From: Verrucomicrobiia bacterium
GTDB taxonomy: Bacteria > Verrucomicrobiota > Verrucomicrobiia > JADLBR01 > JAIBCM01
Direction: 5' to 3'
Length of the DNA: 64,000 nucleotides
NCBI GenBank assembly: GCA_041395165.1
Contig: JAWLBA010000001.1
Location: forward strand, 4,925-68,924
The notes below the pieces were generated by a model that saw nothing but the letters and a program-made list of their open reading frames with translations, was not told the DNA's origin and searched no databases. How positions within the stretch are numbered: position 1 is the stretch's first letter; each line of letters opens with the position of its first letter. This document shows, one piece after another, positions 2,643 through 3,111 of this stretch. A program made the translations under genes and the position numbers.

Positions 2643-3111
2643 TTAGGTATGCTGTGAAGAAATATCGCCTCCAAGCTTAGCAGTTTCTTTAATAAGCGAG
2701 GAGCTAATGCAAATAAAATTATCTTTTGGGGTCAAAAAAAACGGTTTCAATATCGGGAGCGAGTTTACGATTCAAAAGTGCTAGCTGAAATTCAAATTCA
2801 AAATCTGCCACCGCTCGTAAGCCTCGCACAATAGCATGGGCCTGACGCGATTTCTCGCAAAATTGACTAATAATCCTTCAAACGTGGCCACCTCTACTCG
2901 ATTACCCAAACTGGCCACAGCCTCCAGAGCCATCGCTTTGCGTTCCTCCAAAGTAAAAAGCGGTTTTGGGTTCATTCGGAGCAATGGCAAAGATAACCTT
3001 TTGAAACAAATGCAGCGCACGCTCTAAAACGTCCAAATGCCCATTAGTAATGGGATCAAAGCTGCCTGGATAAATGGCGATGGAAGAGGAAGGTTTCACA
3101 AAGTTAATCAA
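2643..3111 (-). pseudogene. coaD: phosphopantetheine adenylyltransferase CoaD, disrupted by three frame changes
   Basis: N-terminus [21 protein letters not shown] is in frame A (ORF 2902..3111). [19 protein letters not shown]...GLLVNFAR is in frame A+1 (ORF 2781..3020). [38 protein letters not shown] returns to frame A. The C-terminus [26 protein letters not shown] shifts again after an 8-T homopolymer (2741..2748 on the plus strand). All pieces are collinear with CoaD. Confidence 0.75.

Follow-up and report, generated by a model that had tools for sequence, protein, structure and literature searches.

The coaD gene is essential in free-living bacteria. In insect endosymbionts such as Buchnera and Blochmannia, slippage of transcription on long poly(A/T) tracts rescues genes with frameshifts. 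Rickettsia and Holospora have retained CoaE alone, and their CoA synthesis begins with dephospho-CoA (PMC5911502). The coaD locus described here lies in the window, the 64-kb stretch of DNA that was analysed, and it resembles each of the described systems in part. Its frame-corrected product matches the CoaD/KdtB family TIGR01510 and the E. coli phosphopantetheine adenylyltransferase (PPAT) 1B6T over the full length and has their motifs in common, but the remnant is not translatable as one polypeptide. The closest relative is the Verrucomicrobiae MAG GCA_019694135.1, in which an intact CoaD of 164 aa (P0001) is encoded on the 480-kb contig JAIBCM010000002.1. The P0001 locus has the same flanking genes, start codon context and stop codon as the window, whereas the relative has one open 164-codon frame and the window has four indels and five segments. 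Rickettsia and Holospora likewise miss an essential CoA step, which would imply the uptake of a late intermediate. However, their genomes are strongly reduced and the genes are long gone, whereas coaD in the window is complete, appears freshly broken and has metabolically ordinary surroundings. With the slippage-rescued genes of Buchnera and Blochmannia the window coaD shares a single lesion in a T8 tract; the other three lesions are outside long tracts, where slippage cannot restore the frame.

The segments of the coaD remnant were defined by three-frame translation of the minus strand (2600-3150) and codon-exact dissection (Table 1). Both confirmed the original prediction that the CoaD segments are all present and collinear and are read in alternating frames, and the third shift was indeed found at an 8-T homopolymer. 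Two other parts of the prediction had to be revised. The three frame changes counted there are an undercount, since a fourth one follows at 2648-2654 and leads into 14 codons in frame +2. Likewise, the remnant does not end at 2643, which is only the position of the frame +1 stop, but runs 40 nt further to 2603. When the frame is corrected, the product scores 170.6 bits against TIGR01510 (cut-off 103.3), covering profile positions 1-154 of 155, and 84.3 bits against PF01467. It also aligns end to end with the PPATs in the PDB (E ~1e-50), including E. coli 1B6T (E ~6e-50), and both the T/HxGH motif (TNGH, segment 1) and ISSS (segment 4) align with the motifs of the E. coli enzyme.

The uninterrupted frame of ~160 codons that is expected of a functional CoaD is absent from the locus, and five frame segments are found instead. 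If the frame of segment 1 is read straight on, the stop codon TAA at 2902-2904 is reached, which leaves an ORF of 69 aa. The frame of segment 2 is closed by TAG at 2781-2783, that of segment 3 by TAA at 2719-2721 and that of segment 4 (+1) by TAA at 2643-2645, and the longest open piece in the whole remnant is 79 aa. Because translation would halt after 69 codons, ordinary translation of the locus cannot, as predicted from its reading frames, give phosphopantetheine adenylyltransferase. Promoter and terminator scans gave hits at chance level only.

Table 1. Positions of the coaD remnant, its segments and lesions, and the neighbouring genes in the window
Feature	Positions	Strand	Description
coaD (phosphopantetheine adenylyltransferase) remnant, whole	2603..3099, or to 3111 with the TTG start	minus	
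coaD start candidate GTG	3097-3099	minus	start of the closest relative
coaD start candidate TTG	3109-3111	minus	upstream of the GTG
coaD segment 1	2965..3099	minus	frame 0, codons 1-45, VKPSSS...PITNGH...APNEPK; nucleotidyltransferase motif PITNGH
coaD segment 2	2856..2963	minus	frame +1, 36 codons, PLFTLEERK...EGLLVNFA
coaD segment 3	2737..2853	minus	frame 0, 39 codons, ends ...PDIETVF
coaD segment 4	2655..2735	minus	frame +1, 27 codons, CISSSLIKE (ISSS motif)
coaD segment 5	2603..2647	minus	frame +2, 14 codons PKNVERCLKAKFNL and the ancestral TAA
coaD ancestral stop TAA	2603-2605	minus	
Lesion 1	2964..2967	minus	A4 run, A6 in all five relatives; 2-nt deletion (-2)
Lesion 2	2854..2856	minus	GCGAGAAA, with GCCAAA, GCCCAA or GCTCAA in relatives; +2
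Lesion 3	2734..2741	minus	T8 on the coding strand (A8 on the plus strand), T7 in the closest relative; +1
Lesion 4	2648..2654	minus	complex patch, 7 nt CAGCATA replacing 6 nt (CTTGTG or TTTGTx in relatives); +1
yceD (DUF177)	2099..2590	minus	intact downstream neighbour, 12 nt past the coaD end
rpmF	1909-2091	minus	conserved syntenic context after yceD
plsX	876-1886	minus	conserved syntenic context after yceD
fabH	1-879	minus	conserved syntenic context after yceD; runs off the window
Variable island between coaD and rsmD	3172..8594	minus	paralogous genes of unknown function, several broken
Island paralog, frameshifted	3172-3924	minus	C-terminal domain in another frame
Island paralog, intact	4108-4956	minus	
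Island paralog, intact	5183-6175	minus	
Nonsense codon in an island paralog	6440-6442	minus	in frame, by substitution; conserved 42-residue tail still in frame behind it
Island paralog, frameshifted	7143-7979	minus	split by +1 and -4
GNAT acetyltransferase, broken	8124-8594	minus	three frames, indels -1, +2, -1; between rsmD and coaD in all relatives
Peptidase_M91 (NleD-like effector family)	8781-9386	plus	ORF of 201 aa on the strand opposite to rsmD and GNAT, inside an ~800-bp insertion
Tandem pair of CBM96-domain genes	10027-12096	plus	first gene intact
Second CBM96 gene, broken	11098-12096	plus	three single-T deletions (11904, 11969, 11982) within 80 nt
Hypothetical gene	12228-13205		also affected

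The effects of the four lesions on the frame are not balanced. Lesions 1 and 2 (-2 and +2) cancel, but the net of all four is +2 and the ancestral frame is never regained. Lesion 2 looks like a duplication of the dinucleotide GA outside any homopolymer, and lesions 2 and 4, i.e. two of the four, are not homopolymer length changes. A nearby template for the new sequence of lesion 4 (2648-2654) was sought, and none was found. In a DNA alignment of six sequences, all four gap positions set the window apart from the five intact relatives. This alignment shows the coaD lesions as derived changes that are unique to the lineage of the window.

Apart from the lesions, the gene is very close to that of the relative. 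The joined coaD product shares 91% identity with P0001 in a protein search and ~97% outside the lesions, where 5 amino acids differ in 161 aligned residues, and the DNA is 89.5% identical to that of GCA_019694135.1. Further intact relatives were found in the protein search, five of them at 80-84% identity, and the bulk of verrucomicrobial CoaDs are at ~60-64%. In each of the five related lineages coaD is intact (163-170 aa). The gene order coaD-yceD-rpmF-plsX-fabH is common to the window, GCA_019694135.1 and four other lineages, and this conserved context argues that the window copy is the ancestral orthologue and not a stray duplicate. On the other side of coaD, rsmD, the GNAT acetyltransferase gene and coaD are directly adjacent in more distant relatives, whereas in the window and its closest relative GNAT and coaD are separated by an inserted block of genes whose function is unknown. 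The lineage occurs in sewage and wastewater metagenomes, and the contig of one relative is labelled wastewater metagenome.

An independent copy of the locus was looked for in several collections. Exact look-ups in public assemblies gave no record for the window PlsX or for the coaD fragment of 69 aa. A search for YceD homologues from a genome of the same species had GCA_019694135.1 as its best match (89%) and gave no independent copy of the locus. When genome contigs were searched with the CoaD of the relative, the matches listed were dominated by the universal FDPITNGH motif, and among them only CoaDs of at most 60% identity were found. The search of metagenome contigs with the lineage-specific C-terminal half of CoaD gave only relatives of at most 69% identity. 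A literature search on the accessions of the relative had no match, and the literature on coaD pseudogenes and on verrucomicrobial symbionts provided general precedents only.

Together the intact ORFs span 56,697 nt of the window with zero frameshifts, and all of their 208 homopolymers of at least 6 nt (78 of them at least 7 nt) are in frame. At the 95% upper bound of a uniform indel rate, 0.026 events are expected in coaD, and the probability of four or more is ~2e-8, so that the density of indels in coaD is far above any uniform error rate, as had been stated in the original prediction. Two simple error models were rejected on these data, the uniform sequencing-error model by zero frameshifts in 56.7 kb versus four in coaD, and the homopolymer-error model by the count of long runs that are in frame. 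The indels are also placed selectively. Six indels occur in the 3.2-kb alignment with the closest relative that runs from fabH to coaD, four of them in coaD and two in intergenic spacers, and none in fabH, plsX, rpmF or yceD. The chance that the coding indels all fall in coaD is ~7e-4, and the chance for all six positions is ~2e-5. Judged by this alignment, the indel placement is the pattern that selection leaves.

With the indels masked, coaD has a dN/dS of 0.051 and a dS of 0.51 against the closest relative. The dN/dS values of the intact neighbours are 0.018 for plsX, 0.041 for fabH, 0.137 for yceD and 0.136 for rsmD, and coaD is thus no less constrained than these genes as a group. The low dN/dS of coaD means that either the inactivation is very recent or the lesions are a local consensus artefact. 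When the coaD changes were polarised with outgroups, 11 synonymous and 4-6 non-synonymous changes were assigned to the window branch, and 16-19 and 2, respectively, to the sister branch. Such counts on the window branch would fit a short phase of relaxed selection only. The neutral phase would have taken up ~4-7%, and at most ~19%, of the window branch, measured from its separation from the nearest relative.

Aligned over 632 bases, the spacers of the window and of its closest relative differ by 92 substitutions and 12 indel events. At this density, a neutral phase of that length should leave 0.3-2.7 indels in coaD, and four were observed (P = 0.0004 to 0.29, depending on the spacer constraint that is assumed). 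The excess would be explained by a mutation process that is rich in indels and acts on newly released genes, or by a local consensus problem in a strain-variable metagenome stretch.

All broken genes lie within 2.6-13.2 kb of the window, and between them two of the paralogs, one CBM96 gene, the M91 gene and rsmD are intact. The part of the island at 3172-8000 (minus strand) contains five or six paralogs that have no Pfam or NCBIfam match. Their N-terminal parts are coiled-coil-like, and their shared module is at the very C-terminus (ECLGGYNPLCxLED ... KLxxxF ... DP ... WGVGF/PY). The island of the closest relative is shorter and has gene fragments of its own, and in more distant relatives the paralogs are not present at this site. 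An insertion of ~800 bp (8598-9404), found only in the window, separates rsmD from GNAT, which are 10 nt apart in the closest relative. It carries the M91 gene, and it may have severed GNAT from the rsmD promoter. In the second CBM96 gene, the three deletions jointly restore the frame, yet a stop codon remains at 11938-11940, and the dS of this gene versus the relative is unusually low (0.14). Like coaD, the other broken genes combine several indels with a low dN/dS. For four of the five broken genes, adding up the indels gives a multiple of three, despite stop codons in the shifted stretches (P ~0.045 by chance).

In the remainder of the window (13-64 kb) there are ~48 genes, and all of them are intact. 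They include metabolic genes (PdxA, an ArgB/N-acetylglutamate-synthase-like fusion of an amino-acid kinase and GNAT, a chorismate-binding enzyme and Rpe) and the genes for LpxK, MurJ, a Mur ligase, DnaK, DnaN, RecF, AraC-type regulators and a FecR-domain protein. The window is best described as having a region in flux within what appears to be an otherwise ordinary genome, and its gene content is not the profile of a reduced symbiont. A second coaD was not found in the 64-kb window by tblastn, nor were other CoA-pathway genes, and tRNA genes and Rfam families had no match anywhere in the 64 kb.

The GC skew of the window is strong (magnitude 0.2-0.3) and changes its sign three times within 40 kb irrespective of gene orientation, from plus to minus at ~20.4 kb, from minus to plus at ~48 kb and from plus to minus again at ~60 kb. 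The dnaN-recF pair is located at 39.5-41.6 kb, and dnaA is not adjacent to it. The skew flips and the placement of dnaN-recF suggest recent inversions or rearrangements.

Taken together, coaD in the window is probably a real and recent pseudogene of the ancestral orthologue in an uncultured Verrucomicrobiae species. It would have been inactivated recently by four small indels specific to its lineage (a deletion of 2 nt in an A run, a duplicated GA, one extra nt in a T run and a complex change that adds 1 nt), and these indels would be real mutations rather than consensus errors. The gene would be one of several that are decaying in and around a fast-changing gene island. The PPAT activity would then be supplied from elsewhere. 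Given that free-living bacteria cannot do without coaD and that no metabolic decay is seen in the other parts of the window, a second PPAT gene outside it seems a likelier source than dephospho-CoA or CoA taken up from a host or partner, for which the only precedent is in strongly reduced intracellular bacteria (PMC5911502). Points against the pseudogene reading are the essentiality of coaD, the lack of metabolic reduction in the window, the dN/dS of 0.051, the excess of indels, the absence of a second assembly of the species from the collections searched and that of a replacement PPAT gene from the window. Pseudogenisation in a host-dependent organism had been among the explanations offered originally. 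Its first half is the best supported of those explanations, with lesions that are derived and lineage-unique and with other, non-essential genes broken nearby; its second half is not supported by the window, given the ~48 intact ordinary genes.

A different explanation, less likely but a serious rival, is that coaD is intact in the organism and that the indels of coaD and its neighbours come from a poorly resolved stretch of the consensus or assembly, for example a strain-variable island in a metagenome whose assembly or polishing used mixed long reads. By its substitutions coaD looks fully selected (dN/dS 0.051), while its indels exceed the prediction for a short neutral phase, and indels without substitutions are what consensus errors would yield. 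Homopolymer length changes make up two of the four lesions in coaD and all three in the CBM96 gene, the broken genes occur only within 2.6-13.2 kb of the window, and the tendency of the indel sums towards multiples of three (P ~0.045) would not be a product of selection on dead genes. The gene is also essential, and an assembly of the same species was not found in the protein and contig collections searched. However, with 56.7 kb of ORFs free of frameshifts and 208 long homopolymers in frame, the error process must be extremely local, and it must have spared yceD, which starts 12 nt from coaD and is free of indels over its 492 nt. Two coaD lesions, a dinucleotide duplication and a 7-for-6 replacement, are atypical of read errors, and one of the neighbour genes is broken by a nonsense substitution and not by an indel. 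Moreover, the island of the closest relative contains gene fragments as well, and intact genes are interspersed among the broken ones of the window.

A real remnant in an organism that makes no PPAT of any kind and takes dephospho-CoA or CoA from a host or partner is unlikely. Rickettsia and Holospora are a precedent for such a life (PMC5911502), a Peptidase_M91 gene of the NleD-like effector family and an expanded family of unknown proteins are located near coaD, and the lineage is rare in public data, with 7 YceD relatives among 5.8 billion proteins. In contrast, all genes in the ~50 kb outside the island are intact, including cofactor, amino-acid, envelope and regulatory genes, strong selection acted on coaD until very recently, and coaD is kept in five of five related lineages. 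That a Verrucomicrobium with an ordinary gene set has truly lost PPAT, and lives on dephospho-CoA or CoA of its host or community or uses a non-orthologous PPAT undescribed in bacteria, is improbable to us.

Programmed frameshifting, the third explanation offered in the original prediction, was rejected, as no site is shifted in the five related lineages and two of the four sites have no slippery sequence. Conserved frameshifting of the prfB or dnaX type is excluded by the same five relatives, all of which are in frame at all four sites. Rescue by transcriptional slippage at poly(A/T) was also rejected, since it needs a tract of ~8 nt for each shift, and only lesion 3 (T8) qualifies while lesion 1 is A4. 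That a full-length enzyme is still made through ribosomal frameshifting and/or transcriptional slippage at the four sites is hardly credible: the codons of all five segments are under apparent purifying selection, and site 1 (CCC AAA ACC) and site 3 (U8) could in principle let a tRNA or the polymerase slip, but none of the five relatives has the shifts and hence a conserved recoding signal, site 2 (GCG AGA AAT) and site 4 (CAG CAT ACC TAA) lack a slippery sequence, four successive low-efficiency events would give a negligible yield, and the remaining broken genes all belong to the accessory set of a single island, with no organism-wide tolerance of frameshifts seen and no Rfam element.

Either outcome, real lesions or artefact, leaves the knowledge of CoA biosynthesis and recoding unchanged. 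If the lesions are an artefact, they are a warning that clusters of errors can sit in a clean assembly beside a variable island. If PPAT were truly lost, the organism would depend on supplied dephospho-CoA or CoA, or would have a kind of PPAT that is undescribed in bacteria. If the lesions are real, as we consider probable, an essential cofactor gene has been caught at the moment of its loss in a little-known, rarely sampled lineage of Verrucomicrobiae. One would then expect the complete genome to encode another PPAT in its place or to show that the organism depends on CoA intermediates from outside, and both findings would be informative about its lifestyle.
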